Origin: a virus
Lineage: Duplodnaviria; Caudoviricetes
Virus record (IMG/VR): IMGVR_UViG_3300028640_000004
Coordinates: 1 to 64,000 of that record
DNA length: 64,000 nt
Reading direction: 5' to 3' (one strand)
Every line of letters begins with the position of its first letter. The first letter of the stretch is position 1. Under the pieces are notes generated by a model. The model worked only from the letters and a program-made list of their open reading frames with translations. It had not been told where the DNA came from and made no database searches. Both the position numbers and the translations under genes were made by a program. Shown piece after piece: positions 3,787-45,470 of this stretch.

Positions 3787-3793
3787 TTAATTT

Positions 3794-21964: not shown

Positions 21965-21994
21965 TTGACAGAAAATATTAGTTATAAATATAAT
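21965..21994 (+). promoter_or_regulatory. Sigma70-type promoter for scaffold/capsid
   Basis: TTGACA-N18-TATAAT; flanks TTTGACAGAAA and TATAATATAAGTAT identical to the 15321 promoter. Confidence 0.8.
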
Positions 21995-24105: not shown

Positions 24106-24153
24106 AAGTAAGCAGGTTGCATTATGGAGAGGTTCGAATCCTCTCCTTACTTC
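24106..24153 (+). ncRNA. tRNA-like mini-element (acceptor + T arm, no anticodon arm)
   Basis: AAGTAA/TTACTT stem stacked on GGAGAGG-TTCGAAT-CCTCTCC; short GCA-GGT-TGC hairpin as connector. Confidence 0.6.
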
Positions 24154-27500: not shown

Positions 27501-30500
27501 GGGCTTTAGATAAGTTTCCAGAAATAGATAAGGCAAAAGGTGTTCTCTCTGATATAGAAAGAAAGAATGTAGCAGCTAGAGATGCCTTTATAAAAAAATA
27601 TAGTAAGCCAGATAGTATGGTTACTCTTCATAAGACTAAGGATTTCTTTGATCTTATGTTCGGAGAGAAGGGTTTCTTGACTAAATCAAGATCATTAAAG
27701 TTTAGAGATGAGTTTAAGATTAATGAACTTGCCATAGGTAAGAGTAGGAATAATTTCTTATTTAACCTAATAAACAACGATAAGAACAATGTAACTAGAG
27801 TTAATTCACGTGTCTTTAATGAAGTAAAAGACGGTTCTTATATTATAGTAATTACAAAAGATGGAGTTAGACATGTTGGTGAAGTTATTAATGTAACTCC
27901 TACTGAGAAAGTTGTTAAAGTTAAGGATACTATTACAAAGGAAGAGGTTGATGGTAATGGTATTATTAAATTAGCACAAGATACTGATGATGGACGAACT
28001 ATTAAAGAACTAAAATCTGAAGATATAGTATCTATAGACGAAGTTATCAAGGATGAGCTTGATGATATAGATTTTATCTGGAAAGATTCTAATGTAGATA
28101 AGACAACTAAAGCATTTAAAGCAAAACAAACTTGGAATTGGTTAGTAAATAAAGGAGATAGGATTAAGGATTGGTTTACTTTAGGTGTGTCATTAGAAAA
28201 GATGCCGTTCTGGATGAGAGGTACTATAAACGACTTTATAGATAAAGCTGGGTTTTCTGCTATTCAAAAAGCATTTTTAAAGTCAGAGGAATTATATTCT
28301 TACTTCGGTAAGTTATACGACGATATTAATTATGAACCCTTAAAAAGAAAAGAGTGGAGTATTAAAGATAATGAATATAAAACTCTTGACTGGAATCAAT
28401 ACCTAGATGAGAAAGGTGAAGTACAACTTAAAACCAGTGTAACTAAAGAAGAAGTTATTAAGAACAAGATTAAATCATTAATCGTATCGCCACATACAGC
28501 TACTGATGCAGACTGGGATGCACTTAAGAAGTTTGATATATATCCAGCCGACTTAAAGGATGCGATTAATAAGTTATTCATTAGAATTGCTAGAGGGGAT
28601 GATGTATCCAAGCTTATTATAGAGCGAAATGATATTCTGTCTGAGCTTGTAGGTATAATAGATCCTAATACCGTACACGAAAAAGCCTTAAGGAATGCTG
28701 GGATGTTTTCTATTGAGAAGGAGAAGTTATTAAAGCATCTACCTAATGATTTAAAAGAGAAAGTAATTAATTGCTCTGAAGAATATCATAAACTTATAGC
28801 TAATAGGGAGTTTGATGAAATTACAAAGAATTATGCAGTAGCAGAATTAATAAGTAGAGGTTATTCTACTGAGATAATTAATGAGGCTGAAAAAGTAATA
28901 CACCTTTATGATAAGTTTATTCATCAGATGCGTGAGAAGGCCTTATCTATTAAGGATGTTATTACTATTCATATATCTAATGCTATAGATATAAGACTCG
29001 ATGATACTGTAAAGGAACTTAACCTGGAGCTTATAGACGAGAAGGTTATTCCTAGACATCTACAAGTTGTAATAGACGATAAGGTTGTTATGGAATTTGA
29101 ACCCGGAACACAAAAGACTGAGATAATAGAATATCTTGGAAGACTTAACTTTAATCAAAAGAAAGGTACTGTTAATAGTGAAGAAATATTAGATGGTAAC
29201 GATACTGTTGATCTATTAAGAAAACTTTATAAGGAAAAAATAAACTCTAAGGGTTCTTCTGATATAGCAAGTTTATTCGAGGAGTTTAGGTTATTATCAG
29301 AGAACGAAAAGATTGTTGGAGATGAACTATTAGATAGGTTCATAGCTTATATAGAAACATACAGAAGTTTACTATCATCTGACATCAATAACTTTAGTGA
29401 GCTATTGGCTATTTCTAATAAGTTAATAGAGTCTCAAAAAACAAATGCTAAGAACGACTTTAGGAACAGGGTATTAAATAAGCTTAATAACACAACTAAA
29501 GGAGGGGCTGGTGTATTTGGTGATATTAAAAATATCGATGAGAATCTAGCTAAGGACCTATATAGAGTAACAGAGCTTGACGATATAGGATTAGAACATC
29601 TAACAAACTCTCTTATTAAGAAGTTTAATAACAAGAAGTATCTTAAAGTTAAAGAACACAATAAGATACTTGTTCTTGATATAGAAACTACAGGACTTGA
29701 TGTAGGTAAAGATAGGATGTTAAGTATTGGCTGGAGCATCATAGATAAGGATGGAAACATTATAAAGGATTCAACTAAGTCATATCTTATAAAGCCTGAT
29801 GAAGATACTAGAGAGATCGTAACTTCAGGAGCAGCTGATGCTGCTTTAGCAAAAAATGGATTAAGTTTAGATAAGTTAGACGTTGAAGGCAATCCTGATT
29901 TATCTACAGTTTTAAAAGAACTTAATAACGATATTAAAGATTGTGAAGCCGTTATGGGTCACAATTTAAAAGAGTTTGATCTTCAAGTACTTAGGAACGA
30001 ATACTCAAAGGCAGAAATGAAGAATAACTTTGAGAATAAAGATGTCTTAGATACTTTACATATAATCAATCCAGCTAAAGCTAAAGGAAAGAAAAGTCTT
30101 GAAGAACTTTACCGTGCTTATATTAGAGATGACTATGTAGAGACACATGATTCTAAGCAAGATGTATTAGATCTTATTGATCTGTATAAGAGAGCTAAAG
30201 AAACTGGTGATCTATCTAAGTCTGTTACGTCTGAGGTATCTAATACTATTAGAAATAACGTTAGTAAACTTAGTCTAGTAGTAAGAAGCCTTGATATAGA
30301 AGGCGGTCTTCCTGTTGGAAACATTGGACACTATGCAGCTACTACTTCTAAGAAGAATATAGAAGAGATAAGAAAAGTTAAGGCTGATAATCTATTCACA
30401 CAAGTACAAGAATTCTTATCTCAAGATATAGTTAGCGTTGTTAAAGAGCTTAACAGAAGTAGAAAGATGATGTCTGATATCTTTAATAAGCAAAAGCATT

Positions 30501-33500
30501 ATAAGAAGAGAGATAGTCTTAAGAACTTTCCTAATTCAGATGTATCGCTTAAGGACTTAATGTACGAGAAGACATCTATAATTAGGGAAAAGAAAGCTGA
30601 ATTAGATGAGCTTAACGAAGGACTTAAGGTTGCTAAACCTAACGACAAAGAAGCTTTAGGACTTAAGATAAAACAACTTAAGGAAGAATTAAACAAACTA
30701 TTAGATGAAAGAGTTGAAAGCAAACTCTTTAAAGAATCTGATGGTATTGTTTCTGTTCCTATGAATTATGGAACTACTGCTGAAGAGGTAGCTAAACTTA
30801 AAGAGTTATACGATCAAGGAAATAGATTTATAGTATTAGTTCCATATGCATTTAGAAGATTTCAAGGAGTTAGAATACCTGCCATAGATGCACTTAATAC
30901 AATTGGGGCAGTAGAAGAGTTTAGTATGTCTAAGAAAGGCGGTAAGGCATATGACTTTTATGTAGCTGATATAAAGAACAACTTACTTATGCCAGGTGAC
31001 TATGCTGAACTAGATAAAGTATTAGCTAGTATGGCAGAAGCAGACATAAAGAAGTTAGATCTTCTAACTAAAGCATATGTATTGGCTAGGCCTAGTAAAA
31101 GAACAGCTCTTATAAAAATATATAGAGCATATTTTGAAGACTTAAAAGCATTAAGAGCTAGAGGCGTGCTTGATACTAGTGACAATAAACTTAAAGCATA
31201 CAATAAGATTATTGGAAAATTAGAGAATGATGCAGAAGATTTCTTTGGTGTTAATGCTGACGAGATAGTTGGAGAGCATAGGTTATTACAGAACCTAGAA
31301 GATGCAGACGAAATGATTATGCGTATTACAGATAAGGATAATATAAATAAGGATTCATATGCTTTAGATTTAAAGAAACTAGCTATGCTTCAGGATATAG
31401 AAGAAGTCTTTAATATAAATGAACTATATAGTCTTAGCGATATCTTAGAAGTTAAAAATAAAACAGATGTTCATAGCGCATTAACATTACTGAATGAGGT
31501 AGTTACTTCAAACGATGAGGCAAAACTAGAAATGTTACATAACAATCTTCTTGAGTTCCTTAAGCCTGAAAGTATGGAGGTTGATCAAGTAAAGGATATT
31601 AGCTTTAAGGTATGGTACAATAGACACGGTAAAAAACTATTTAAGGATGAAGTAACCTTTGAAGATCTAAATAAGGAAAAGAACTTAAAGAAATTAGATA
31701 AAGCTAGAGATAATTATGCTAAGTTCAGAGACCTTAATATTCCTAAACCTAAAGAAGTATGGTTTGAGTTTATGAAGGAAAACAATAAAGCCTTCAATAA
31801 CCAGTTTGGAAGCAAGAGCATTAAAGATCCTGAAGTAAATGAAGCTTATCTTGATTACATAAAAGGTGACCCTAGTGGGGTAGGTAAGGCTTATGAGAAA
31901 AGTTCTGAACTTACGGTTGGAGCTGAAGAAGTAGGCCCTCAATACAATGAAGATGGAATTGAAAAAGGACGTGGTCAATTAGAAGAAGCTTATCTTATTA
32001 AAAGAATTAAGGAGATTTTAGATACCACCAAGGAAACAACTAGCTTAGATGTATTGGGAGATATAGGAATTAAGATAGGACATAAGACATCTAAAAGAAT
32101 TAGTAAAGATGGCTTTCTTGGTAGGGAGCACAAGGTTGATCTTGCTGCTGTCTATGACAATAGAGTAAATTCAATAAGTGAATTATCTTTAGTTGCAAAG
32201 AAACCTCTTGAAGATATTCAATTCAAGTCTACTTTAGAAGGTGGTCAGATTTATAATTCTGTATATGGAAAAGATAAGACGGATAATGTTATTTACATAG
32301 TTCCTACTATAAAAGATAAGATTACTGAGGTCGGAGAATTAAAACCAAGACAAGACTTTAAAGAAGGTGACCTTGTTATAGTTAATGAGACTAGAGAGAA
32401 ATTAATACCAGAGAAAGTTGATTGGGAGGATTATGAGTTTGATAATGAAGAAATAAAACTAGAGGTTATTAGAACTGGAAGAATGTCTTATACTGAACTT
32501 AATGATGTTTATTATAAGATTCCATATACAGATGCTATTAAGCTTAATACTATAGATAAACTCAAAGAAAGGTTAAGTAATATATATAACAAAATATCTT
32601 CTGGAAAAAAGCCATTACCATTAGATTTTAAGTTTATAAAAACAGGAACAAAGGCAGAAATGGATTATGTTAATAGCGTTATTACAGACATTAAGAAGTT
32701 GTATTATTCTGATATATACGTAAAAGGAAAATCTGACAAAGAAATACAAGAAGGACTTTCTAATATTTCTAAGAACGTTAATCAAAAGATTAATGACTGG
32801 TCTTATATGAAGAAAGATATTCTTAAAAAGAATAAGAAGAATCTTCTTAAATTAACTGATCCTAACATTGAAAAGAAAAAGGAAGTTATTGATAACGAAA
32901 TAAATGAATCATTATCAAAAGAAAGAAATAAGGATGATTTATATAATCTATACAAAGTAGATAAACAAGGAAACTTAGAACATCTTAACAAGGCTACAAT
33001 TAAAGACATTAATTCATTAGTAAAAGAAAATATTGATGAAACAAAGTCTTATCAGGTTATAGACAGTCTCTATGACGAGAGAAGTAAGCCTGAAAATATC
33101 TTTGGTGATGCTCCTGTAATAGAAACTATTAAGCCTCCTAAGTGGGATTATAAGAGTGATATTATTACAGATGAGTTGCCTATTACTAATGAGTTATCTT
33201 TCCTTAAGATTACTGATAAAGGAAACGAATTAATTACTATACAAGGAAGAGATAAGATCTTCTTTAAGAATACCGTGGAATCTGATAGAGCTGCTGGTAA
33301 TAACAGAGGTTTTGGAAAACCTAAGATAGAGAATACTTCGTATAGATTTGAAACTGTTAAAAGTCCTGATGGTTCAAAAGAAGTACATGTTGAGAAGTAT
33401 ATAATTATAGATGTTATATCTGAGACACGAGAAAAGGAATTGATTGCAAGTATTAATAAACTTAAAAAAAGGCCGAAGAGTAATAAGAAAGAGATAAGTA

Positions 33501-36500
33501 GATTAGAGCGTGATCTTAAAGCTGAATTAGAATGGCGGGATGCGATCAGAGAAAAGGTTGATGGGTTAACTATACCTACGTATGAAGTTGATTCATTATC
33601 AGATGTAAGCATAAACGACATTGATACTATTAAGGGAATAAGAGGACACTTCTTCAATAGAGAAAAAGGAGTTACCTTTAGTAATAACAAGAAGTTTAAT
33701 TCATCATTCTTTAATCGCAACATTTTAACTGAGGTTGAATCACAGACAATAAGGGGAATAAATAAGACATATAAAGTAATTCAAGATACTCTTAGGGCTA
33801 AGAGAACTCCTGGTTATGCCGGTATATTCCCTAAGGCTGATCCTGCTTTTACAGATGTGCTTGGTATGGAAGATAGTATTAAGAAACTTACTAGTTCCAT
33901 CTTAAAGTATGAACAGAAAGTTAATCTAGAAGATGTGCTAGTTGGTTTGATGTTTGAAGAAAAGAACTTTGTTAAACCTTGGAAAGATAAAGAGGTATTG
34001 GTACTGGTTAACAAAGAACAAAGAGGAATTACAAAAGAGTTTAGAGATGCAGTTGATGAACTTGAAGGTACCGATACAGTGTTTATATTTCCTACAGGAG
34101 AGCTATCTAATATAGAGATAGCAATGCAGGAGTATATTGTAAACAAAGGACTTAAAGTAGAGAGGCGAGCTATAGAAGATAGACCAATTATAAAACCGAA
34201 AGAAGAACCTATTGAAGGAACTCCAGATGTAATAAAGCAACAAGATGAAGTACTTGCCAGGGCTAGTTATGTTCTATATATGGGTAATCCTTATAAGGAT
34301 TTACAGTCTATATCAGAAGTATCTAAAGTACTTAAAGATGCAAGAGAAGCTGGTACTATAGTCTACTCTACCAATAAAGCAAAGAAAGAACAGCTTAAAG
34401 CTATCAAGGCTTTCTTTGGAGATCCAGAGACAACTAGAGCAGCCTATAAGATGCCAAGCCTTCCATTAAGATTAGAGCTTAAGGAAGGAATGAGATCTGT
34501 AGAAGAGGCTACTAGAAAGATTATTCTTGCTTCGATGAGAAGAGAATTTAGGGAGGAGTGGTATAAATGGAAGCAAGCTGCAATAGATCAATATAGAGAA
34601 GAGTTGGTAAACAGGTTTAGACAGACCGGAGCTTTCTCTGATAATAAAAGGAATCTTGCTATAGCCGAACAGATAGTAGAACTCAAAGTCAAAGAGCTTG
34701 AGAAACAACTTAAGGGTATTGAAGATAATATACTTAAATGGAAAGGGTCTCAACCTATAACAGATAAGATACTTATCAAGACAAAGAAAAATATCTTACA
34801 AAATTTATATAAGGATATAGCTAGAGAGAAGAAAGATATATCTGCATTTAATGGTTATCTTAAGACTGGTGTACTTCCATCGAAGAAATATGGACTTGTA
34901 AGAGATTCTATTCTATTAATGAGAAAGGCATTGGGTATACCAGGACATCTACAGAAAGCATTTATTACTTTCGTCTTAGTATTAAGACCGGCTTGGTATA
35001 TAAACAATGCTAACGAAGATCACTTCAAACAGTTCATTATAGAAAAAGATCTTAAATCATTAGCTAAATCTTACTCATTGACAGTTAAGCTATATGCTAA
35101 GTTCGGTAAGTTAATAACTAAGAACGCCTTAAAGGATACTGCAAATCTTAAGAAAATATTAGCAGATGATCTTAAGAAACAGTATAAGCTAGGCTTAATA
35201 AGCAAGGAACAATTCAAGCTTATGACAAAGCAACTTGAAGGTGATTCCTTTGATGCATTACAAATATTAAGAGCAGAGACGGGGAAAGAAGCTAAAGATG
35301 TTGCTGACTTAATAGATAAGCAGAAAGATTTTATAGTCATTAATGGTGTTACAATTACTAGGAGTGATATAGAATATATGCTTAACTCTGGTGTTATGGA
35401 AACATTTACCAGTGCATCTGAAGCTAAGTTAAAAAAGAACATTGCTTCTGATCAAAGAAGTGGATTTGGAAATGTGATAGCTAAAGCTAGTGAGTATCAG
35501 GATAATCTTAAGTTCTTTGCTAGTGAAACAGAAAGAATGAGAAGAGGAGTCGTATTACTTAGGATATTACAGAAACAAACACAAGATATGGTTGCTGGCG
35601 CAGTCTTTGATCCTACTACAGGAAGATCTATTATTAAAGATTTCTTCTTTGATTATAGAGATCTTAATAGGGCAGGAATGTTATTCAGAAAGATATTTCC
35701 ATTCTTTAGTTATAGTTACTTCTCAGTAGTATTGTACCTTAAACTGCTTTATAAATATGAGGGGATCAGAGCCTTTAATGCTGGTGTTGCTTTACTTGAG
35801 GTATGGGAAGCTAATACACAAGAACTCTCAGATGAATATAAGGATAGATGGGCTATGCAGTTAGGTGGTAAAACTTACTTAGTTAAGATTCCTTTATCTG
35901 CTTTCGAAGTAGTTAAGTTATTCCAAGATCCAGTAGGAGCTATAGAGAAGTCTGTTGAGAATCCATTTAAGAGTCTGATGGGATTATCATTCGGTCCATT
36001 CGTTGGAACTGCCGTTGAAGAGATAACAGGTAAAGATTACTTTACTCCGAGTAGGATACAATTAAGAAAACTTGGATGGTCTCATGATGAGATAGAGGAA
36101 GAGATTAAGAAATATAATAAAGAGAAGAAGGATGAATCTTTAATTGATAAGAGTTGGAACTTAATGAGTTCTATAGTTCCACAAGCTTCGTTAATTAATG
36201 ACCTGTTCTTTAGAGCTGATGTAGGATATGAGCAAACAGGCAATCCTTTAAAGAGTAAGAAGTTTAGAGAACTTACTAAGTTCTTCGGTATAAATATCAT
36301 GACACTTACAGACGTAGATAAGCTTAGGAATAAGATATATTCTATGCCACCTTCTGTAAGGAACTTCTACTTAGATAAAATAAAGAAAGAAGATCCTGAA
36401 TTATATGATGAGTTCAATAGGCAATCTAGAATTGGATTCGAATTAAATCTTTATAATGAAGGTAAATCACCTAATGAGATTAGAGCGGCTGTTATGAAGA

Positions 36501-39403
36501 GAGATGTACAGACTAAGTACTATGAAAAAGAAGCAGAGAAGAATGGCTCTGGTGATGAATGGTTAAGAACTAACAGTCAAGCTAGGGATATAATGGAAGA
36601 GGTTTGGAAAAGTTCACCTACTAATACTCGTAAGGAGTTCAAAGAAAAAGAACGACAGGCTAAGGAAACTCAGAGAATGATTACTGAGATTATCGAAGAG
36701 ACCTTACCCAGTAATATAACTGAAAAGAATCTAAGGAAGTATCAGGCATTAGGCGCTGAGTATACTGAACCTATTAATAAGGAAGAGTTGATTAGAGATG
36801 TTACTAATAAAGGATTAGATGTCGATCAGATAAATAATTTAATAACTTATAAGTGGAAAGATAAAGGAGTTTCTCTTATTAGGAAAGACTTATTAGAACA
36901 TAAGAAGCAAGAACTTGAACAATACAGAAGCTTAAGTCTTAGTGAAAAGGAAGCATTGAGCTCTGAAGACAAGTCTTACTATACTACTAAAGCTGTCATA
37001 GATAAGTATTTACCTAAGGAAGGTGACTCAGAAGAAGAGCAAAAGAAAGCATTTGAGAAATACAGAGAGGCTTTTAATAAATACTTTACTCCTGAACAGA
37101 AAGAAAGATATCTAGCATCATTACCAGAAGCCCAGAGGATTCTTAGAGAAGCTAATGAAGCTTATATAAATGCATGGGGTGAACTTCTGAGTGGAGAAGG
37201 TAATGGAGCTGATTACTATGATGTATTCAATGCAATGCCACAATGGTTTAAAGCATTCTATTTTTCAGCACATCCAGATGCTGCAATATATTATCCTTTA
37301 GCTTCAGAAAGACAGAAGAGATTCAATGAGATATACGAGAAGGAGTCTCAGGGGTTTAATATGTCTAAGGAAAGAAAGGCTTTGAATGATTGGTTCTGGT
37401 CTAATTCAGCTCAAGTAAAAGCATGGGAAAGGGATAAGCCTGATAAGATCAAATACTTAAGAATGCAAGAGAAGTTTATGGATTCTGTTGATCCTGATAA
37501 ATATTATTCTTCTCTACTTAAGACTGATCCATGGTACTTGAATGAATACTTTAAGAAGAATCCTGATGCTAAAAAGTTTGCATACATCCTAGCTACATTA
37601 GAAGAATATATGGAAGATAGTGATGATGAGAAGTACTCTAAGCTATTAGAAGAGTTTGCTAATAGTGAAGCTGGTAAGTTATACGCAGAGAATCATCCTA
37701 TTGCCGGAGGACATAATAAGCTTGAGTATAGATTGATGTGGAATAACCTGATTAAGAACTCTCAACCAGGAGAGTACTATCAAGGATTCTATAATCAACC
37801 AGATTGGTTCAAGAGATATTGGTTCAATGGTAACCCAGAGGCTGAAAAGTATTATGGATTCAGGGCTGAACTAGCGAAGAAAGAAGGCGCTGCTTATGAT
37901 GAATACTTATGGGCTGATTATAATAAAGAAGCAAGAGAAGCTTGGTTCAATCATAAACCTGAAGATAGAGACTATTATACTAACTTTAAAAAAACTCTAA
38001 GTACATTCAGGAACACTAACAACATGTTCGGGTATTATGATTTCATACTCAATCCTAAGAATTCTAAGTATCTAGTTAGATGGTCTAATAATGACCCTAA
38101 GAAAATTAAAGCGGCTCAATATTCCAAACAGTACTATGCACTACCTGCTAAGACATGGGAAGATCAAAAGGCTAGAATAGCTTGGATAGATAATAATAAA
38201 TTCTTAAGGGAATGGTGGGATAAAGATAAGACTCCAGAAGAAATAGAGTTATCTAAGAAGGCAGATATCTATAGAAGAATGAAGTATGATATTGAATCAA
38301 TAGGATCTGGTTCTGATTACTATATGAAGTGGAGAGAATTATCTGCTAAGAGAGAGCAATATCTTAAGAACAATCCAGACCTTAATGAATACCTCAATAA
38401 GTCGTATGAAGATAATAACTTAGAGCCGACTAATATCCAGAAGAAGTTAGCTATCTATAATAAGATTAAGGATGATGATAAGAAGCGGGAATATCTTAAG
38501 GAGAACAAGGATCTATCGGATTACTTCTTAGATGGAGTTCCTGAGGGTATTAGACAGATAAGAAAATTACAAGAGAAGTACTTTGCTATAACACAGGATA
38601 AGTATTCTAATGCAGATGATTACTACGTAGCAAGAAATAGATTCCTTAGTAAGCATAGAGAATTACAGGAGTATTGGGATGCTATGTCACTACCCCCTTC
38701 CGCATTCATACATAAGGAGAAGTTTGATGAATGGCAGAAGAAGCTTAATAAAGTACTGAGGTATTATGACGGTGTTACTTCTGATAGTCTTAATGATTCT
38801 ATGAGGTTATCTATCCAGAGAATCAATTCGTACATGGGGGTAGAGAATTCTCCAGAGGCTGAGTGGTTCTGTAACAAAGTGTACAATGCAGCTATGAGTA
38901 AGTGGATAGATTTAATGGGATCTAATAAGTCTATAGGCATGTTCTTCTTTAGACAATTGCCTTCATGGATTAGAGCAAGATACTTTGAAAAGAATCCTAA
39001 CTCTAAGATGTTAAAAGGATACTCATTAGGAGATTGGTTTGCTACTGGTATTTCTAAATACAACAGTAGTAATCCAGGAGTTAAGTGGGCCTTAGAACAA
39101 CAGAAGAAATATGGAGCTGGAGGTATTCCATTCTCTATAAAGAAACAAGTAGAGAGGTATCTTAAGGGAGCTGGTATATGGGAAGACAGGAGCGGGTGGG
39201 ATTCTGCTAAGTGGAATAAATGGCAGATTTCTAGAGCCGCATATCTTAATGGATTAAAGGAAAAGGATATAGAGAATAATCCATTGATAAGAAAGGAGTT
39301 ATATAGGGCGATCACAGGAACGATAAGGCCTATTAACCCTAAGGTGTATAATAAGAAAGTAAGGTGGGAGCAAGTAGTAGACGTGTCTTTGACACGTCTA
39401 TGA
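24584..39403 (+). CDS. Giant (4939 aa) polyvalent/internal virion protein: 3-4 LysM, DEDDh 3'-5' exonuclease, degenerate SLOG-like domain, C-terminal aromatic helical repeats
   Basis: HIVKAGENLDSVAKQY...IKEGQEL (LysM x3); VLDIETTG/GHNLKEFD/THDSKQD; FFFDYRDL...RKIFPFFSY; PxWF..Y...NPDA repeats. Confidence 0.85.
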   Translation: MEVKKHIVKAGENLDSVAKQYNLKTGDLARWNAILDNNSIKEGQELNLAWTSELPLQIKVGKDNKLEAYAKQFNVSVDRLKKINNLDTDDVSAGTILTIYNPARNEWLEAKPDDTLDTIAKRYDITKERLIELNPRFTWKELKAGDYVMLPREGIYQYKEPEVPKIEKAKTKIPSLPSYSIPKTTKTEELIYPKYKETKEFMPFKTQQPIDTATSVALGWIPLLGDRLKDFNTQKFLEDITNELKEKTDTYLSNYKKAVKAGDKQEQYRQTQIYKNTVKEYERLTGITPKTTDFEKVLKDLRDPVKVARNKQTWNAASEYEQGELITKTEVPLPEGGTMHVVPAKDLGITDEVSAFQYEKDAVNEYNSYMQEGIDSGYIDKEGKQTSQILSLLERLSLKSQTASTLSQVMPALNSDITTFYKDFSNIFESTDNNVRIERQKRFLNKYKDLSVVRDMYPQFLEYNNLFLESNNLEKKITDISSELQSIKNYREIMTILSSPNITAEDIRDVDIKQSDLIRVGNLMDSLSNYKTKLMAITDRTVTMSSDFENSLNNFQGIISNYEDQNNLKRLFIEGASTESSLARNIKTLALAKLDAGIMRGDSYQDNQDIVNYNNYLRWSDNVTKSQIKLLQANYLANGFRRISEMKFEEREQKKLAGSWIMNWFDPEYSEFNPLEKALTLLGTSINNLTNSDKAHEKAVGYTAIGLLEGLNWASSVVVAGVKVPAVYYDIVSNFGLDKTTNALRELVGDITPETRIALDKASDIAIENHIRSQFNIKSASDLWNPLGVASQLYTGNVLKTPDGVKYKEVLLNKDVNLFALFSEKTSEMTRYLQLEAMNPDKDLSNLKSGDVIKMPETEEGYFLPGQRWAQGLLDPITYLEWQIRNPVGLELSNQLFENILDPLNFITPAGLFGKLGRGVEGITITPYSFTRNTILDLNKKMLVDFETNSFFRNKLKWYKDSFTRWNAKVEAWALDKFPEIDKAKGVLSDIERKNVAARDAFIKKYSKPDSMVTLHKTKDFFDLMFGEKGFLTKSRSLKFRDEFKINELAIGKSRNNFLFNLINNDKNNVTRVNSRVFNEVKDGSYIIVITKDGVRHVGEVINVTPTEKVVKVKDTITKEEVDGNGIIKLAQDTDDGRTIKELKSEDIVSIDEVIKDELDDIDFIWKDSNVDKTTKAFKAKQTWNWLVNKGDRIKDWFTLGVSLEKMPFWMRGTINDFIDKAGFSAIQKAFLKSEELYSYFGKLYDDINYEPLKRKEWSIKDNEYKTLDWNQYLDEKGEVQLKTSVTKEEVIKNKIKSLIVSPHTATDADWDALKKFDIYPADLKDAINKLFIRIARGDDVSKLIIERNDILSELVGIIDPNTVHEKALRNAGMFSIEKEKLLKHLPNDLKEKVINCSEEYHKLIANREFDEITKNYAVAELISRGYSTEIINEAEKVIHLYDKFIHQMREKALSIKDVITIHISNAIDIRLDDTVKELNLELIDEKVIPRHLQVVIDDKVVMEFEPGTQKTEIIEYLGRLNFNQKKGTVNSEEILDGNDTVDLLRKLYKEKINSKGSSDIASLFEEFRLLSENEKIVGDELLDRFIAYIETYRSLLSSDINNFSELLAISNKLIESQKTNAKNDFRNRVLNKLNNTTKGGAGVFGDIKNIDENLAKDLYRVTELDDIGLEHLTNSLIKKFNNKKYLKVKEHNKILVLDIETTGLDVGKDRMLSIGWSIIDKDGNIIKDSTKSYLIKPDEDTREIVTSGAADAALAKNGLSLDKLDVEGNPDLSTVLKELNNDIKDCEAVMGHNLKEFDLQVLRNEYSKAEMKNNFENKDVLDTLHIINPAKAKGKKSLEELYRAYIRDDYVETHDSKQDVLDLIDLYKRAKETGDLSKSVTSEVSNTIRNNVSKLSLVVRSLDIEGGLPVGNIGHYAATTSKKNIEEIRKVKADNLFTQVQEFLSQDIVSVVKELNRSRKMMSDIFNKQKHYKKRDSLKNFPNSDVSLKDLMYEKTSIIREKKAELDELNEGLKVAKPNDKEALGLKIKQLKEELNKLLDERVESKLFKESDGIVSVPMNYGTTAEEVAKLKELYDQGNRFIVLVPYAFRRFQGVRIPAIDALNTIGAVEEFSMSKKGGKAYDFYVADIKNNLLMPGDYAELDKVLASMAEADIKKLDLLTKAYVLARPSKRTALIKIYRAYFEDLKALRARGVLDTSDNKLKAYNKIIGKLENDAEDFFGVNADEIVGEHRLLQNLEDADEMIMRITDKDNINKDSYALDLKKLAMLQDIEEVFNINELYSLSDILEVKNKTDVHSALTLLNEVVTSNDEAKLEMLHNNLLEFLKPESMEVDQVKDISFKVWYNRHGKKLFKDEVTFEDLNKEKNLKKLDKARDNYAKFRDLNIPKPKEVWFEFMKENNKAFNNQFGSKSIKDPEVNEAYLDYIKGDPSGVGKAYEKSSELTVGAEEVGPQYNEDGIEKGRGQLEEAYLIKRIKEILDTTKETTSLDVLGDIGIKIGHKTSKRISKDGFLGREHKVDLAAVYDNRVNSISELSLVAKKPLEDIQFKSTLEGGQIYNSVYGKDKTDNVIYIVPTIKDKITEVGELKPRQDFKEGDLVIVNETREKLIPEKVDWEDYEFDNEEIKLEVIRTGRMSYTELNDVYYKIPYTDAIKLNTIDKLKERLSNIYNKISSGKKPLPLDFKFIKTGTKAEMDYVNSVITDIKKLYYSDIYVKGKSDKEIQEGLSNISKNVNQKINDWSYMKKDILKKNKKNLLKLTDPNIEKKKEVIDNEINESLSKERNKDDLYNLYKVDKQGNLEHLNKATIKDINSLVKENIDETKSYQVIDSLYDERSKPENIFGDAPVIETIKPPKWDYKSDIITDELPITNELSFLKITDKGNELITIQGRDKIFFKNTVESDRAAGNNRGFGKPKIENTSYRFETVKSPDGSKEVHVEKYIIIDVISETREKELIASINKLKKRPKSNKKEISRLERDLKAELEWRDAIREKVDGLTIPTYEVDSLSDVSINDIDTIKGIRGHFFNREKGVTFSNNKKFNSSFFNRNILTEVESQTIRGINKTYKVIQDTLRAKRTPGYAGIFPKADPAFTDVLGMEDSIKKLTSSILKYEQKVNLEDVLVGLMFEEKNFVKPWKDKEVLVLVNKEQRGITKEFRDAVDELEGTDTVFIFPTGELSNIEIAMQEYIVNKGLKVERRAIEDRPIIKPKEEPIEGTPDVIKQQDEVLARASYVLYMGNPYKDLQSISEVSKVLKDAREAGTIVYSTNKAKKEQLKAIKAFFGDPETTRAAYKMPSLPLRLELKEGMRSVEEATRKIILASMRREFREEWYKWKQAAIDQYREELVNRFRQTGAFSDNKRNLAIAEQIVELKVKELEKQLKGIEDNILKWKGSQPITDKILIKTKKNILQNLYKDIAREKKDISAFNGYLKTGVLPSKKYGLVRDSILLMRKALGIPGHLQKAFITFVLVLRPAWYINNANEDHFKQFIIEKDLKSLAKSYSLTVKLYAKFGKLITKNALKDTANLKKILADDLKKQYKLGLISKEQFKLMTKQLEGDSFDALQILRAETGKEAKDVADLIDKQKDFIVINGVTITRSDIEYMLNSGVMETFTSASEAKLKKNIASDQRSGFGNVIAKASEYQDNLKFFASETERMRRGVVLLRILQKQTQDMVAGAVFDPTTGRSIIKDFFFDYRDLNRAGMLFRKIFPFFSYSYFSVVLYLKLLYKYEGIRAFNAGVALLEVWEANTQELSDEYKDRWAMQLGGKTYLVKIPLSAFEVVKLFQDPVGAIEKSVENPFKSLMGLSFGPFVGTAVEEITGKDYFTPSRIQLRKLGWSHDEIEEEIKKYNKEKKDESLIDKSWNLMSSIVPQASLINDLFFRADVGYEQTGNPLKSKKFRELTKFFGINIMTLTDVDKLRNKIYSMPPSVRNFYLDKIKKEDPELYDEFNRQSRIGFELNLYNEGKSPNEIRAAVMKRDVQTKYYEKEAEKNGSGDEWLRTNSQARDIMEEVWKSSPTNTRKEFKEKERQAKETQRMITEIIEETLPSNITEKNLRKYQALGAEYTEPINKEELIRDVTNKGLDVDQINNLITYKWKDKGVSLIRKDLLEHKKQELEQYRSLSLSEKEALSSEDKSYYTTKAVIDKYLPKEGDSEEEQKKAFEKYREAFNKYFTPEQKERYLASLPEAQRILREANEAYINAWGELLSGEGNGADYYDVFNAMPQWFKAFYFSAHPDAAIYYPLASERQKRFNEIYEKESQGFNMSKERKALNDWFWSNSAQVKAWERDKPDKIKYLRMQEKFMDSVDPDKYYSSLLKTDPWYLNEYFKKNPDAKKFAYILATLEEYMEDSDDEKYSKLLEEFANSEAGKLYAENHPIAGGHNKLEYRLMWNNLIKNSQPGEYYQGFYNQPDWFKRYWFNGNPEAEKYYGFRAELAKKEGAAYDEYLWADYNKEAREAWFNHKPEDRDYYTNFKKTLSTFRNTNNMFGYYDFILNPKNSKYLVRWSNNDPKKIKAAQYSKQYYALPAKTWEDQKARIAWIDNNKFLREWWDKDKTPEEIELSKKADIYRRMKYDIESIGSGSDYYMKWRELSAKREQYLKNNPDLNEYLNKSYEDNNLEPTNIQKKLAIYNKIKDDDKKREYLKENKDLSDYFLDGVPEGIRQIRKLQEKYFAITQDKYSNADDYYVARNRFLSKHRELQEYWDAMSLPPSAFIHKEKFDEWQKKLNKVLRYYDGVTSDSLNDSMRLSIQRINSYMGVENSPEAEWFCNKVYNAAMSKWIDLMGSNKSIGMFFFRQLPSWIRARYFEKNPNSKMLKGYSLGDWFATGISKYNSSNPGVKWALEQQKKYGAGGIPFSIKKQVERYLKGAGIWEDRSGWDSAKWNKWQISRAAYLNGLKEKDIENNPLIRKELYRAITGTIRPINPKVYNKKVRWEQVVDVSLTRL
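25095..25108. repeat. Dispersed palindrome copy 4: CGAAGATACCTTCG (inside CDS)
   Basis: Reverse complement of copy 3. Confidence 0.75.
39378..39400. promoter_or_regulatory. Perfect 10-bp inverted repeat overlapping a -35 box (operator or hairpin)
   Basis: TAGACGTGTC-TTT-GACACGTCTA. Confidence 0.6.
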
Positions 39404-39417
39404 TACCCCGCTATAAT
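39389..39417 (+). promoter_or_regulatory. Sigma70 consensus promoter for tail adaptor genes (near-leaderless)
   Basis: TTGACA-N17-TATAAT, ATG 8 nt downstream. Confidence 0.8.
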
Positions 39418-40095: not shown

Positions 40096-42723
40096 ATGCA
40101 AATAGAAAATAGATTCCATATACAATTAGACTATAAGGGATATATGATAGAGCCAAAGACCGCTAGAGTTCTACCAGCACCTCTTATGGGAAGTAAGTTC
40201 AGTACGGGTAGGACTAGCTATTCTGATTTTGATTTCTGGCAATCAGATGCAATGACTAATTTTTCTAGAGGAATCAATCAGAAGTTCTTATCAGATACTA
40301 ATGCTTATTGGTTCTCTAATGGTATAGATGTTTCTTATCCAGGAGAATTCAAATTAGAGAAAGATATAGTAACTGAAACAAGTAGTGTTCTTACTAGTGC
40401 TCATGGACAAGTTACTGCTACTTATAGATCTAGTGATAGGATTTATGTAGGAACTTCTAAAGGATATGTATTCTATAGACTTACTAATGCTAGTGAATGG
40501 GTCTTAATAAGTAGTATTACACATGATGATCATCCTGTTACATGTTTCTTTGAAGTAGTAGATAGCAATGCTGCTGACTATCAAAAAGTATTATATGTAT
40601 GTAAGGGGGATTATAAGGGATGGATACTCATTGATGGAACATGGGAGCAGGTTGGTCCAATAATACAATGGGCCCCTAGTCTTAGTAGAGTAGAAGGAGT
40701 TCCAGTAGCAGTATCTGGATTACTACATAATAGGAAGATTGCACAGTCTATAATACTTAACTCTAGTGAAAAGGCTAGAAGGATTTCTGTTCTATATAAA
40801 ACAGTAGGGGGATTTAATGGAAGAGTGATATTAAGGTTCCATTATTCAGATATGACAACTGGAGGAATTGCTCCTAGTTCTATAATAAAGGAATATCAAA
40901 TAACATTACCAACAGCTACCGATTGGACATGGTATCATTATAATATTACTAATGATGATGACCGTGTAGTTCTTAGTAGGTGTGATAAATACTTCCTTGA
41001 GATAGAGGCGCTTGATGGTAATGATACTGTATATCCAGAGTTTGCATGCTCTGTCGGTAGAGATTCTACTTATGATGGAGATGTATTAATAGAGATGGAA
41101 AATGGTGCAACGGAGTATAGCTTTGCAGCAAGAGGACAACAATTAGCTTTTAAGATCTGGTCAGATCTTCCAGATAAGGTTTACTATGTAAGCTCACAAG
41201 GTCATTATGCATTTGGTTATGTTGATAACGGTATTAAGACTACTAGTAACGGAGTCTTATGGTCACCTGATTCCACTAGGGGATTATGGACATTACCAGC
41301 TCAGCAAGGTAGACCACTGGCAATGGGAAGAACGGCAGGTGGAACCATCATTGGTGGAGAAAGTTCTCTTTGGAAATATGTAGGAAGTACCAGTGCTATG
41401 AGTCTATGGGACTTCCCTGATTATATCAATGCAAATAATTTCAAGGGATTCTGTGAATGGAACAATAAGATTATCTTCTCTGTAGAGAATCAAGGCATCT
41501 ATATGACAGATGGTACTGGTACTATTCATACCAATATGCAGGCTGACAGAGAGGCTTTTCAATTCGAAAGCTGTGCCGGTATCACAACGTGTGGATGGCA
41601 GGCATTTGCTTTAGTAAAGAGAAAGAATGACAGTGAGTGGTACTTAGCTAAGAGTACTGCGCTATATGATCAGTTCTTTACATACTGGTGGATAGTAAAA
41701 GGATTTGGTAATAAGATACCAGTAGGAATAATCTCACTAAATATTAACGATGTAATTATATTCCATTCAGACGGAACAATACAGAAGTATTCTTATAGTG
41801 GACCATATCAAGACTCTGGATATATAGAGACATCTTTAATAGATGCTGGATTAGTTAAGCTAGATAAACTATATAAGAATATAGAGGCGATCTTTGAAGA
41901 GTTTGAAGAGGGGACTAAGTGCAAGTTATCTATAAGAAATTCCTTAGAAGGAACTTATATAGACTCTAATGAATTTGATGGAGGCTCTACAGAATCTGCT
42001 TTATTCAGATTACCAAATCCTACTAGTGGAAATAGATTACAGATCAAGACAACTATATACTCTAATAGTATTAATACTAGAACTCCAGTATGTACTGATA
42101 TTGTATGGACATACATACTACAGAGAAGTATTAATGAGCGCAATGTATTGAAGAGTGTGAATATGTCTATCATATGTGAGAATTCATTAGAAGATAATTT
42201 AGGAGACGTAGAGTTTGAAACAGATCCAGATGCAAGAACTAGAGCCGGACTAGTTAAAGATTTATGGGATACTGTAGAAAAGAGAGAGACTCTTAACTAC
42301 ATAGGATTTGAGAACGTATCAACTCCGGCATTTCATATATCTTATGCTGGCACTCATATCTATACTATAAAGATAGATAGAACAAATTATCTATTTAGTA
42401 TATATGAAGGTAGTACATTGAAGTATTCATATAATTACCAAGGAGCTACTGCTGCAAACTTAATAGCAGAACTTAATGAGAAGATCATAACAGGTGATAC
42501 AGAAAAATTATATTGCACTTTAGTTGATCCAATAACCGAAACTGATTCTATAGAAGGATTAGAGCCGGTCATTGATTACTATATAAAGCAAGATACTTAT
42601 CTTAATCTAGGTACAGATGTTAAGGCTGTCATTATAACTAATAGCAGTCCTAACCAGATAAAGATGGCTTTAGATGGTAGAGGAAGTGATAGGGTTATGT
42701 TAAGTCTTAGAGAAGCTGACTAA
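40096..42723 (+). CDS. Tail nozzle/tubular-B-like beta-propeller protein (putative)
   Basis: Beta-rich, IYVGTSKG blades, SGYIETSLID...KLYKNI; position. Confidence 0.6.
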   Translation: MQIENRFHIQLDYKGYMIEPKTARVLPAPLMGSKFSTGRTSYSDFDFWQSDAMTNFSRGINQKFLSDTNAYWFSNGIDVSYPGEFKLEKDIVTETSSVLTSAHGQVTATYRSSDRIYVGTSKGYVFYRLTNASEWVLISSITHDDHPVTCFFEVVDSNAADYQKVLYVCKGDYKGWILIDGTWEQVGPIIQWAPSLSRVEGVPVAVSGLLHNRKIAQSIILNSSEKARRISVLYKTVGGFNGRVILRFHYSDMTTGGIAPSSIIKEYQITLPTATDWTWYHYNITNDDDRVVLSRCDKYFLEIEALDGNDTVYPEFACSVGRDSTYDGDVLIEMENGATEYSFAARGQQLAFKIWSDLPDKVYYVSSQGHYAFGYVDNGIKTTSNGVLWSPDSTRGLWTLPAQQGRPLAMGRTAGGTIIGGESSLWKYVGSTSAMSLWDFPDYINANNFKGFCEWNNKIIFSVENQGIYMTDGTGTIHTNMQADREAFQFESCAGITTCGWQAFALVKRKNDSEWYLAKSTALYDQFFTYWWIVKGFGNKIPVGIISLNINDVIIFHSDGTIQKYSYSGPYQDSGYIETSLIDAGLVKLDKLYKNIEAIFEEFEEGTKCKLSIRNSLEGTYIDSNEFDGGSTESALFRLPNPTSGNRLQIKTTIYSNSINTRTPVCTDIVWTYILQRSINERNVLKSVNMSIICENSLEDNLGDVEFETDPDARTRAGLVKDLWDTVEKRETLNYIGFENVSTPAFHISYAGTHIYTIKIDRTNYLFSIYEGSTLKYSYNYQGATAANLIAELNEKIITGDTEKLYCTLVDPITETDSIEGLEPVIDYYIKQDTYLNLGTDVKAVIITNSSPNQIKMALDGRGSDRVMLSLREAD

Positions 42724-42726
42724 TCC

Positions 42727-42819
42727 TTTGGAGCTTAGTGGGGCGGAGTACCACTCTTAATCTCTATATAAAGAACTTATATACAGGAAAGCAATCGGGT
42801 TCGACTCCCGACTCCAAGC
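42727..42819 (+). ncRNA. tRNA-like element with non-canonical central arm
   Basis: Acceptor TTTGGAG/CTCCAAG; D-like AGTGG-GGCGGAGTA-CCACT; TATATAA-AGAAC-TTATATA arm; T arm TCGGG-TTCGACT-CCCGA; no CCA. Confidence 0.65.
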
Positions 42820-43566
42820 ATGGCAAAAAGAAAGACATCAGAACAGGTACTGGTAGAGAATATATTAGACGGTAGAGAGGTAGAAGTCTTAAGTAGTAAG
42901 ATGATTAGAAAGACTAAGTATACCCAAGAAGCTTATGACATGAGTGTTGGGATACCAGGAACTGTACCAGAAAAGATTATTTATAACTACTTAACTGCTT
43001 CAGAAGTAGAGTTTTTCTTTCAGTATAATTATGCAGATAATAGAGTAACCGCATTACCAGAAGGTATGTGGATAGCAGACTTTTATTTACCGGCATATAA
43101 TATATATATAGAAGTATATGGAAATTATTGGCATTCAATAGATGAAACAGTTGATAAGGATTATCAGAAGAAGGCATTCTGGAATGCTATGGGACTAGAG
43201 GTTATTGATTCTTCTAGAGCAGAAGATCTAGTCCCATCAAAGACAGCACAAGTAGGTAAGGTTGTTATATGGTGGGAGAAAGATATCTATGCAGATGTGA
43301 GCGGTTTATTTGCTAGAGATTTACCAGAGATATCTGTTAGAAAGATTCCTGGTAAAGCTCATGAAGTAGGTTTTGATGCGATAGCAGAGATGGAAAAACG
43401 AGAACTTAATAGCAAGATACTTAAGCTTAGGAAGAGTAAGGCTCAGATTAAACCATTGAGACTAGAAGTTAAGAAGCTTAAGAAGAAGGCGATTAGTGCT
43501 AATTTCTTTGAAAGGAATATAGAGTTAATTAACACTACAAGAAAGATAAAAAGAAATGATTACTAA
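42820..43566 (+). CDS. PD-(D/E)XK endonuclease-like protein (Vsr/DUF559-like)
   Basis: EKIIYNYL...FQY...IADFYLP...YIEVYGNYWH...WWEKDI. Confidence 0.75.
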   Translation: MAKRKTSEQVLVENILDGREVEVLSSKMIRKTKYTQEAYDMSVGIPGTVPEKIIYNYLTASEVEFFFQYNYADNRVTALPEGMWIADFYLPAYNIYIEVYGNYWHSIDETVDKDYQKKAFWNAMGLEVIDSSRAEDLVPSKTAQVGKVVIWWEKDIYADVSGLFARDLPEISVRKIPGKAHEVGFDAIAEMEKRELNSKILKLRKSKAQIKPLRLEVKKLKKKAISANFFERNIELINTTRKIKRNDY

Positions 43567-43577
43567 ATACAAAAGAT

Positions 43578-45470
43578 ATGAGCAGTAAATCATATAGATC
43601 ATTAGAAGAACTAAACAAGATAGCGGCTATAGGAGTAGTCGAAGATTCTGGTGTAGATTCTTCTAGTAAATACATAAAAGTATTTCCAGGTAAGGTTGAA
43701 TATTCTACAGTCAACGCTCTTTGTGATGGACAAGCAGGACAAAGCTCTGGGAGTAAAAGTACTACTAATGATAATGTTATTAGTATAGCTAATATAGGAA
43801 GCGGCTATGTAGCTGGTAACTTTAGAATAGGAGAGCTTATTAACTTAAGCGGGCCTGGTGGAATGATTACATTTGGTATTCCATCTAGTGGTATAGTTGG
43901 TAGTCAACCTTATATGGTGATGGATAGATATGGTTTATATGGTGGAATTGGAGATAGTGACGATCGTTGGTTCTATGTAAACTATAGCGGAGAATCTGTT
44001 ACAGCTAATGGAAAGGTTATATCAGGTGGAGATCTATTTATAGGAAGTGCGTTATCTTATTTATTCTGGGATCATTCAAAAAGTAAGTTAACTCTCTATG
44101 GAGATTTTGATATAGCTGGTAATATCACTTCGGTAAATTGGAATCCAGACTGGTTAACCGACCCTCCAATGACAGGATATAAATTAGACTGGACTAGTGG
44201 CAATGCTTATTTTGCAGGAGCAGTAGTATCCGGTAGCTCTACAATAGGAGGGAGATTAGCTACTACAGTTGGGGGAGCTATAAATGTAGATGGAAACTTT
44301 ACTAATGACGTCATTAATACATCATTAAATACACAGTCTAGATATATTCTTAAGCTATTTGATGTTAAGAATACTACACAAACATTATCTGGATTTAGGT
44401 CTGGTACACTAGAGTGGAACTCTAGTGGAGAAATAATAAGTGGATATGGAGTAGCCATGACTCCATTTGGGTTGGTTGGTGGAGTTACAGTTGGAGGAAT
44501 TCCAAAGACAACTTTTAGTATTAGTGCATTAAATGGTGATGCTACTTTTGGTGGAATTCTTGTAGCTGCTTCTGGAACATTTGGAACTATTACAGCAGGA
44601 AGTCTTGGTGGTAGTCTTACTGTTGGAAATAGACTAGCTACTACCATAGGAGGAGCCATTGATGCTGATGGGAAGTTTATAAATGACATTGATATACCAG
44701 GAAAACTTAAAACTTCTACTGGTGAAATATTAAAAGTGTTTGATGTTAAAGCAACAACACAAGCGCTTTCTGGATTTAGAGCTGGAGATCTTGTATGGAA
44801 TAGTTCTGGGGTAAGAACTAGCGGTAAAGGAATTGCCATGACACCATATGGAATCATTGGACATGATGGAACAAATCCAACATTCTCGATAAATATAGAT
44901 GGCACGGCAACGTTTGCCGGAACATTATCTGCTGGTATTTCTATATCCTCTCCAATAATTACCGGAGGAAAGATGATATTAAATAATGAAACAGAAAAAT
45001 TCATACAACTAAGAAGGTGGAATGGAAGTAGTTGGTATGATGTTGTAGGATTTAATTATGCTTATGCGGCAGCAGGTGGAACATTTTCTATAGATACAGA
45101 TAGTGGAGGTCTATCTATAACTGATAGTGCTGGTCCATATGGCCCGGCCGGAAGTTTTTCTGCTGGAGCATGTAGCCTTAATATGAGGTCAAATATATTA
45201 ACACTTACATCTAACGTTTTGATACATGCAGAAGCACCAATTACTCAGACTAAATTACTAATACCTTATACTGATAACTCTTATAATCTAGGAAGCCCTT
45301 CATATAGATGGAGCACTTTATACACAGGTCATATACAATTTTCATCATACTCAACTAATCCTTCTGGGGCTATAGGTAAGATGTGGCATTTTGATAATGG
45401 ATCAGTACAACAATTTAGAGGATGTCCATGGAATACTAGTATTTATTCGTTTGATATGACAGCAATATAA
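43578..45470 (+). CDS. Tail fibre/spike-like protein with an internal ~105-aa duplication
   Basis: Gly-rich beta pattern; RLATT.GGAI..DG.F..D...ILK.FDVK.TTQ.LSGFR.G.L.WNSSG twice; PYTDNSYNLGSPSYRW. Confidence 0.7.
   Translation: MSSKSYRSLEELNKIAAIGVVEDSGVDSSSKYIKVFPGKVEYSTVNALCDGQAGQSSGSKSTTNDNVISIANIGSGYVAGNFRIGELINLSGPGGMITFGIPSSGIVGSQPYMVMDRYGLYGGIGDSDDRWFYVNYSGESVTANGKVISGGDLFIGSALSYLFWDHSKSKLTLYGDFDIAGNITSVNWNPDWLTDPPMTGYKLDWTSGNAYFAGAVVSGSSTIGGRLATTVGGAINVDGNFTNDVINTSLNTQSRYILKLFDVKNTTQTLSGFRSGTLEWNSSGEIISGYGVAMTPFGLVGGVTVGGIPKTTFSISALNGDATFGGILVAASGTFGTITAGSLGGSLTVGNRLATTIGGAIDADGKFINDIDIPGKLKTSTGEILKVFDVKATTQALSGFRAGDLVWNSSGVRTSGKGIAMTPYGIIGHDGTNPTFSINIDGTATFAGTLSAGISISSPIITGGKMILNNETEKFIQLRRWNGSSWYDVVGFNYAYAAAGGTFSIDTDSGGLSITDSAGPYGPAGSFSAGACSLNMRSNILTLTSNVLIHAEAPITQTKLLIPYTDNSYNLGSPSYRWSTLYTGHIQFSSYSTNPSGAIGKMWHFDNGSVQQFRGCPWNTSIYSFDMTAI

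Follow-up and report, generated by a model that had tools for sequence, protein, structure and literature searches.

An uncultured phage carries, between a virion-module gene and the gene that follows it, a 93-base stretch that looks like a tRNA and whose last base touches the A of the next start codon. Is this element a tRNA, the remains of one or a structured RNA of another kind, and could its removal from a longer transcript set the 5′ end of the downstream message? The window (the whole stretch of DNA analysed, 64 kb) is the first part of a 92.2-kb uncultured phage contig from IMG/VR, with 33% G+C and an estimated completeness of 69%. No cultured relative was found: the large terminase shares no more than 26% identity with those of known phages, and a DNA search gave no match. 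A pattern scan of viral contigs returned no MCP relatives. A homologue on a contig that was binned with a WOR-3 MAG is too slight a hint to assign a host. The A-rich leaders without Shine-Dalgarno (SD) motifs are like those of Bacteroidota, but the consensus TTGACA/TATAAT promoters are not. The element and its neighbours, all on the + strand, are:

40096–42723, + strand: 875-aa ORF of the virion module, upstream of the element, with a TAA stop at 42721–42723
42727–42733, + strand: acceptor stem, 5′ strand UUUGGAG, pairing with CUCCAAG at 42812–42818 and co-varying across relatives
42734–42736, + strand: 3-nt linker CUU (family consensus GCU, its U invariant)
42737–42755, + strand: D arm, with stem AGUGG (42737–42741)/CCACU (42751–42755) and loop GGCGGAGUA
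42756–42794, + strand: central arm replacing the anticodon arm, with the hairpin UAUAUAA-AGAAC-UUAUAUA at 42765–42783 and its flanks
42795–42811, + strand: T arm UCGGG / UUCGACU / CCCGA
42812–42819, + strand: acceptor stem, 3′ strand CUCCAAG, and discriminator C42819, CCA being absent after it
42820–43566, + strand: putative Vsr-like (PD-(D/E)XK superfamily) nuclease gene, 248 aa, its ATG right after the discriminator
43578–45470, + strand: tail-spike-like ORF, 630 aa (phrog_1171; weak PF12219 match below cut-off)

The 875-aa ORF matched no family in Pfam or PHROG searches, and its C-terminus (...GRGSDR..SLREA, then stop) is kept among relatives.

The element spans 42727–42819 (+ strand), and its arms agree base for base with those read into it by a preliminary description of this DNA, which had proposed a 7-bp acceptor, a GG-bearing D-like arm and a 5-bp T arm. 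The other parts of that description also hold: the central AT-rich stem lacks U33 and a purine at position 37, CCA is absent, the acceptor starts at 42727, 3 nt past the TAA at 42721–42723, and C42819 abuts ATG 42820 exactly. The first of the seven acceptor pairs is U-G, the D-arm loop reads GGCGGAGTA at the DNA level, and the central arm holds no 7-nt anticodon loop and no U33/R37 context. The acceptor/T-arm stack, the T-loop UUCRANU and the D-loop GG are all present, the stack amounting to 12 bp (7+5 bp in the window, 8+4 in many relatives). Moreover, GGTTCGACTCC at 42798–42808 conforms to GGTTCRANYCC, the T-arm motif of plant-mitochondrial t-elements.

As a single sequence the element is unconvincing. 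ARAGORN made no call at 42727–42819 under default and intron settings and no tmRNA call there in tmRNA mode. Rfam gave no tRNA match in the window at gathering score, and its tRNA model found nothing at E ≤ 10 within 42600–42950 and nothing at E ≤ 1 in 11 relatives. No family in Rfam 15 matched the element. The best Rfam score came from the tRNA-Sec model (RF01852) in a single relative, L029, at 26.1 bits against a cut-off of 47; the Tymo_tRNA-like model reached 13.8 bits, below its threshold of 40, and Y RNA models gave no hits in the window or the relatives. In topology the element is a plain cloverleaf, unlike the permuted YrlA type or the pseudoknotted tymovirus type. Furthermore, its folding z-score is only −0.83, making it no more stable than shuffled sequence, and the frequency of the T-loop word equals the chance expectation.

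Comparison across relatives shows that the element is a real structured RNA family, far beyond chance. Relatives were gathered with the downstream protein (6 viral-contig, 29 metagenome and 1 MAG loci, with 7 more added by protein look-ups), and a tRNA-like element was found between the same two genes in ~28 related uncultured phage contigs, whose downstream gene product has 220–250 aa. In a plain MAFFT alignment of 18 elements (A4), which was not fitted to the structure, 77.7% of the cells of the cloverleaf pair, compared with 58% for shuffled and 38–47% for slid controls; double changes occur in 19 of 22 pairs, and the covariation score is 0.548 against 0.11–0.20 for the slid controls. When 26 sequences were aligned to the model (A11), 81.8% of cells were paired, with double changes in 20 of 22 pairs. 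In the D arm of the latter alignment, pairing holds in ~90% of cells and double changes occur at every pair, and in the T arm the two loop-adjacent G-C pairs are invariant in 26/26 sequences. G-U pairs are found on the + strand only. RNAalifold independently gives the acceptor, D and T helices, favouring an 8-bp acceptor and a 4-bp T stem in many members, so that the total stack stays at 12 bp. Invariant or nearly invariant residues comprise the linker U, the D-loop GG (GYGGNGU, the loop consensus of a D arm whose stem is 5–6 bp in the family) and the T-arm GG-UUCRANU-CC; some members have weak T stems of 3–4 pairs only.

A covariance model built on 18 relatives with the window copy left out (R2) matches exactly 42727–42819, at 42.7 bits and E 2e-11, and the next best site in the 92-kb genome scores 15.9 bits. 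Additional members were found by models not built from them (L021, L028, L031, L062 and L069–L074), and true tRNAs score at most 19 bits with the family models. The element is present once per complete relative, and the whole genomes G000–G003 hold one copy or none. A D-arm motif scan of viral contigs for the family in other contexts yielded two chance hits lacking a T arm. The preliminary description had suggested that a covariance comparison might find the elbow conserved and the central arm variable, and so it does: the elbow is kept, and the sequence and loop of the central arm differ between clades. These alignments support selection on the tRNA-like top half and elbow, with a central arm that is not an anticodon arm.

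That central arm is an extended hairpin of ~35–46 nt in all members. Its base helix of 3–4 bp co-varies in most of them (UGC/GCA, UAC/GUA, UGA/UCA, CGC/GCG), and beyond it lie an internal loop that is A-rich on both strands, a distal helix of 5–9 bp and a terminal loop. The terminal loops, of 4–10 nt, are unrelated between clades (the window has AGAAC, others UAGUAAUAU), and in no member is there a 7-nt loop with U33 and R37. A loop motif, YCUACAYR, nevertheless persists in many members across deep branches on a stem that varies; no conserved complement to it was found within ±800 nt. In the closest relative, L062, whose nuclease is 66% and whose element is ~90% identical to those of the window, two pairs of the central hairpin have changed on both sides in a compensatory way (U-A to C-G and A-U to G-C) around the same loop, which argues that the odd central arm is kept as a helix.

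It is highly improbable that the element decodes as a genuine tRNA whose anticodon arm is unusual or holds an intron, or that it is a decaying tRNA pseudogene. For a tRNA speak the relaxed ARAGORN settings, which propose tRNA-Tyr(ata) with a 17-nt intron or a tRNA of undetermined anticodon, and the sub-threshold 26-bit match of L029 to tRNA-Sec; the ARAGORN calls are inconsistent with each other, and the tRNA-Sec match lacks an anticodon loop and has a stack of 12 bp rather than 13. An intron reading fares no better, since what remains after joining the sides of the internal loop, or after taking out the distal hairpin, are A-rich strings that offer no U33/R37 context. Decoding is further contradicted by the lack in every member of a 7-nt loop carrying U33 and R37, by terminal loops so unlike in length and sequence between clades, and by the failure of the Rfam tRNA model at the lenient E-values given above. 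As to decay, co-variation over ~28 lineages together with the compensatory changes rules it out, and on this comparative evidence tRNA and pseudogene are both effectively excluded.

The gap between discriminator and ATG is 0 nt in 10 contigs, 1–2 nt in 9 and 6–10 nt in 9, with no case of 3–5 nt, and the abutting state occurs at no fewer than five separate places (≥5) on the nuclease protein tree. Judged by protein conservation, ATG 42820 is the real start: the N-terminus MARLKTRQYKxLxxLEDER is kept from Met1, four of the five changes in codons 1–10 between the window and L062 are synonymous, and in the window nuclease no further in-frame Met occurs until about residue 32. In L062 (9971–10705) the public call starts at a downstream ATG (10001), losing ten conserved codons from the element-abutting ATG; for annotation, this means that gene callers may misplace starts beside such elements.

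The element always lies directly upstream of the same Vsr-like nuclease gene and never in a tRNA cluster. In L003 an HU gene (PF00216) is inserted upstream of it, indicating that the element stayed with the nuclease and not with the virion gene. In every member the upstream stop lies within 0–10 nt of the element, with an overlap in L028 and L030. The element has disappeared from several lineages that retain the nuclease; the junction is then a plain A/T-rich leader (L016), a TAATG stop/start overlap (L061) or, in the G003 group, occupied by a DUF5679 gene. Going by these losses, the element is dispensable. The tight spacing on both sides could in part be gene packing alone. The DUF5679 gene encodes a 53-aa zinc-ribbon protein in L007 (2729–2887), and the same junction is seen in L005, L006 and L033–L035. 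L031 was considered as a case of a second kind of ORF abutting the element: at 739–989 an apparently frameshifted HNH endonuclease ORF (PF01844) sits a few codons inside the nuclease ORF, immediately past the element. This inserted ORF inherits the nuclease ATG and is thus not independent evidence.

Evidence on the downstream gene is weak but concordant in pointing to a Vsr-like PD-(D/E)XK nuclease. The window protein matches PHROG 559 and 3339, and had no match in Pfam or in a PDB sequence search. Its AlphaFold model is of moderate quality (pLDDT 68.9), and with this moderate-quality model Foldseek ranks Vsr (1cw0; probability 0.92, E 0.04) best and also retrieves the homing endonuclease I-Bth0305I (3r3p; probability 0.90, TM 0.70 by target). 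Residues D87, E98, H105 and D114 are invariant among 19 homologues. A distant homologue matches Pfam PF03852 and PF04480 (Vsr/DUF559), and JGI calls one homologue Vsr. The earlier reading of this gene as a nuclease is consistent with PHROG and the nearest folds, which specify the Vsr-like kind.

Transcription, translation and tRNA processing in this phage bear on the mechanism. A promoter-like site lies upstream:

39389–39417, + strand: promoter-like site of the sigma-70 type, a perfect TTGACA-17-TATAAT ending 8 nt before ATG 39426

A second perfect TTGACA/TATAAT site (21965–21994) ends 13 nt before ATG 22008, and a site with 10/12 matches (3759–3787) ends 6 nt before ATG 3794. Promoters ending 6, 8 and 13 nt before ATGs imply leaders of ~0, 1–2 and ~6 nt, which are the lengths of the two spacer classes seen between element and ATG, and primary transcripts with leaders of ~0–6 nt are likely. 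No terminator-like site was found on the + strand between 39000 and 47500, a span that covers the stretch from the 39389 promoter to 45819, and the element thus probably lies within an operon. This operon likely starts at the 39389 promoter, on which reading its genes would be co-transcribed, and the 630-aa tail-spike-like ORF presumably shares a processed mRNA with the nuclease gene.

The genes of the window are SD-less in style, as had been proposed: an SD-like motif precedes 4 of 63 genes, less than the background of 24%, and leaders are A/U-rich. In G+C content from −20 to −1, the starts at 42820 (0.60) and 24155 (0.45) are the top two of 63 genes, the median being 0.15. In a generic partition-function calculation of start accessibility, 42820 did not stand out among the genes; G+C content alone set it apart. 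As for tRNA maturation, none of the 40 tRNAs called by ARAGORN in four related genomes has an encoded CCA. CCA-less tRNA precursors are RNase Z substrates in studied bacteria, and with CCA-less phage tRNAs the host must be able to mature such precursors. Genes for RNase Z or a CCA-adding enzyme were not found on these contigs, which are incomplete.

We put the chance at about one half (~0.5) that the element is cut out by the RNase P and RNase Z of the host, which would leave the nuclease/tail-spike mRNA leaderless or with a short leader. The element would be a dedicated non-decoding tRNA mimic inside a polycistronic late transcript, probably from the 39389 promoter, that keeps the features read by tRNA end-processing enzymes, namely the 12-bp stack, UUCRANU, the D-loop GG, by which the elbow is closed, and a discriminator without CCA. 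Host RNase P would cut at 42726/42727 and host RNase Z after C42819, freeing an RNA of ~93 nt and a nuclease/tail-spike mRNA whose 5′-monophosphate end is the A of AUG 42820; SD-independent ribosomes would then translate this leaderless message. Cut in the same way, the transcripts of sister lineages would retain an A/U-rich leader of 1–2 nt or 6–10 nt. It is the combination of a selected tRNA top half, a 0–2 nt gap, CCA-less tRNAs, SD-less genes and near-ATG promoters that leads to the view that excision would give leaderless mRNA; the transcription unit, both cleavages and leaderless translation are what we infer from these sequences. The idea of a leaderless mRNA made by an RNase Z-type cut, put forward in the preliminary description, remains the best reading where the gap is 0–2 nt (19 of 28 members), but for nine members the product would carry a leader of 6–10 nt. 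Several findings weigh against excision: the loss of the element from some lineages, a start accessibility that is not exceptional, the weak T stems of several members, a central arm for which a bare signal has no need, and a tight spacing that gene packing might partly explain.

That description had gone further and proposed tRNA punctuation as a scheme for late phage mRNA, on the strength of this element, the SD-less, leaderless style and another element, at 24106:

24106–24153, + strand: minihelix of acceptor and T arm, downstream of the capsid gene; C24153 as discriminator, one U, and then ATG 24155

Its acceptor is AAGUAAG (24106–24112)/CUUACUU (24146–24152) and its T stem GAGAGG/CCUCUC, with the loop UUCGAAU and no central arm. 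The minihelix is nearly invariant in three close relatives, in which the flanking coding sequence varies, and absent from three distant relatives, which have ordinary terminators after the capsid gene. We also considered general punctuation by true tRNAs: in four genomes, an ATG begins within 2 nt after 5 of the 40, where ~2 would be expected, an excess that is not significant and leaves the case unconvincing. The data support one conserved, gene-specific device and, as a second, the lineage-specific minihelix; as a general rule the scheme is too broad, given a family found once per genome, a 24106 minihelix confined to close relatives and a weak tRNA-ATG excess. Among the tRNAs, a tRNA-Pro is followed after 1 nt by the ATG of a 79-codon membrane-protein-like ORF (genome 70670–70979, − strand) and a tRNA-Asn after 2 nt by that of a basic 70-codon ORF (genome 71078–71362, − strand); both loci lie at L038 ~6670–7362. 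The two putative ORFs have no homologue in G001–G003 and no Pfam family.

Excision need not be the purpose of the fold. It might instead stay uncut and act in cis as a translational gate, masking the nuclease AUG until ribosomes ending the upstream ORF melt the acceptor and expose it, so that a potentially harmful nuclease would be made at a low level, its synthesis coupled to that of the upstream protein. Such coupling would suit an upstream stop that is 0–10 nt from the element in every member and overlaps it in L028 and L030, the direct TAATG coupling of the genes in L061, which has no element, and a G+C-rich leader among the A/U-rich leaders of this genome; phage homing-endonuclease genes are, moreover, known to be held down by RNA structures in the start region (PMC2988022). 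Any hairpin would suffice as a gate, however, which leaves the T-loop, the D-loop GG, the 12-bp stack and the co-variation of the cloverleaf unexplained, as it does the absence of 3–5 nt spacers, and we consider both the gate and the restraint on nuclease synthesis that would follow from it distinctly unlikely.

The central arm raises a different point. At ~40 nt, with its length kept and with compensatory changes, it is superfluous for a bare processing signal, as the 24106 minihelix without it illustrates, and its retention beyond processing needs indicates some further role for the RNA. One unlikely but tenable reading is that the excised RNA is the product, a stable trans-acting tRNA mimic whose closeness to the ATG is a by-product of gene packing; as a decoy or sponge it might occupy a host factor that binds tRNA or a defence nuclease, or it might act as a partner to the nuclease encoded beside it. 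This is compatible with cleavage and differs from the excision reading only in what is selected. It would account for a central-arm length held at ~35–46 nt, the compensatory changes between close relatives, the persistence of YCUACAYR over deep branches on a varying stem and the A-rich strands of the internal loop. Against it stand a central-arm sequence and loop that are wholly different between clades, the lack of a complementary target nearby, the repeated loss of the element from lineages in which the nuclease stays, and its constant attachment to the nuclease start, never to a tRNA cluster. The two roles could also be joined: the excised RNA of 93–98 nt, stable and tRNA-shaped, would be active in its own right besides marking the cuts, and its long central arm, with a loop conserved within clades (such as YCUACAYR), would bind a partner; we regard this as rather improbable. 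That partner might be the adjacent Vsr-like nuclease, giving an RNA-assisted or RNA-restrained enzyme, or alternatively a host tRNA-binding defence or processing factor that is titrated late in infection.

In the literature searched, no report was found of tRNA-mimic excision yielding a leaderless mRNA in phages or bacteria, and several described systems share parts of the proposed arrangement. Animal mitochondrial transcripts are reportedly punctuated by tRNAs (Ojala, Montoya and Attardi, 1981): there, as proposed here, tRNA-shaped units are cut from polycistronic RNA to leave mRNAs that start at the AUG or right beside it and are translated without leaders. The mitochondrial units are functional tRNAs used genome-wide, whereas the phage has one non-decoding mimic and a lineage-specific minihelix, and its true tRNAs are not clearly so used (5/40 vs ~2). 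MALAT1 mascRNA and the TMER units of murine gammaherpesvirus 68 are tRNA-like folds with degenerate anticodon arms and RNase P and/or RNase Z signals. They resemble the phage element as tRNA-like cleavage signals separating two RNA products, and differ in being eukaryotic and nuclear, with non-coding RNAs or microRNA precursors as products rather than a leaderless bacterial-type mRNA. Canonical tRNA and tRNA-Sec (RF00005, RF01852) have in common with the element a cloverleaf with a T-loop and a D-loop GG, and the 8-bp acceptor, 4-bp T stem and 6-bp D stem of many members are reminiscent of tRNA-Sec; the element, in contrast, has no anticodon loop, has a 3-nt linker between acceptor and D arm, and scores far below the gathering thresholds.

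Of the systems described, the t-elements of plant mitochondria come closest. They were found with the motif GGTTCRANYCC and are taken to guide RNase P and RNase Z to the cuts that form 3′ and 5′ ends of mRNAs (PMC1920247). Like the phage element, they are non-canonical cloverleaves or acceptor/T-arm mimics with the same T-arm motif, lie inside longer transcripts beside protein genes and need no anticodon function (Forner et al. 2007, PMC1920247). Several of the plant RNA ends have been mapped experimentally; plant mRNAs mostly keep long leaders, whereas the phage cut would fall ≤2 nt from the AUG; and the phage element occupies one fixed position before one gene family, in a bacteriophage. Within phages, I-TevI, segB and mobE offer a parallel of another kind, in which simple hairpins sequester the SD site and late promoters inside the hairpin relieve the block (PMC2988022). 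These, too, are structured RNAs directly upstream of a phage endonuclease ORF that exert post-transcriptional control, and RNase processing of such transcripts has been described (PMC2988022), but their hairpins have no tRNA-like features.

If the cleavage is real, the element would be the bacteriophage equivalent of plant t-elements and of tRNA punctuation in mitochondria, in which a dedicated tRNA mimic lets host tRNA enzymes cut an operon transcript into a leaderless mRNA. It would provide a route to leaderless mRNAs with no promoter at the gene, and would explain how SD-less phage translation can start at internal genes with structured upstream sequence. Additionally, a family of ~28 members with a covariance model and clear boundaries offers a test set for the in vivo substrate range of bacterial RNase P and RNase Z.

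Several observations elsewhere on the genome and in its relatives complete the description. A giant 4939-aa ORF occupies 24584–39403 of the window, and its homologue has Pfam hits to LysM (weak) and RNase_T; in the region beyond the window lies a GroEL-like ORF of 530 aa (L038 7965–9557). Beside the tRNA cluster, ARAGORN calls a tmRNA (genome 71368–71687, − strand), and a perfect T arm, ACAGG TTCGAAT CCTGT, is found at 74447 (region ~74421–74524), outside the called tRNAs. The homologue of the capsid gene is split in two relatives, at G001:C1 ~62999–65456 and G002:C1 ~90256–92687 (L040, L041, L043, L044), where segments matching residues 2–64 and 174–414 of the window protein lie ~1.5 kb apart, which suggests an intron or endonuclease insertion in the capsid gene of G001 and G002.
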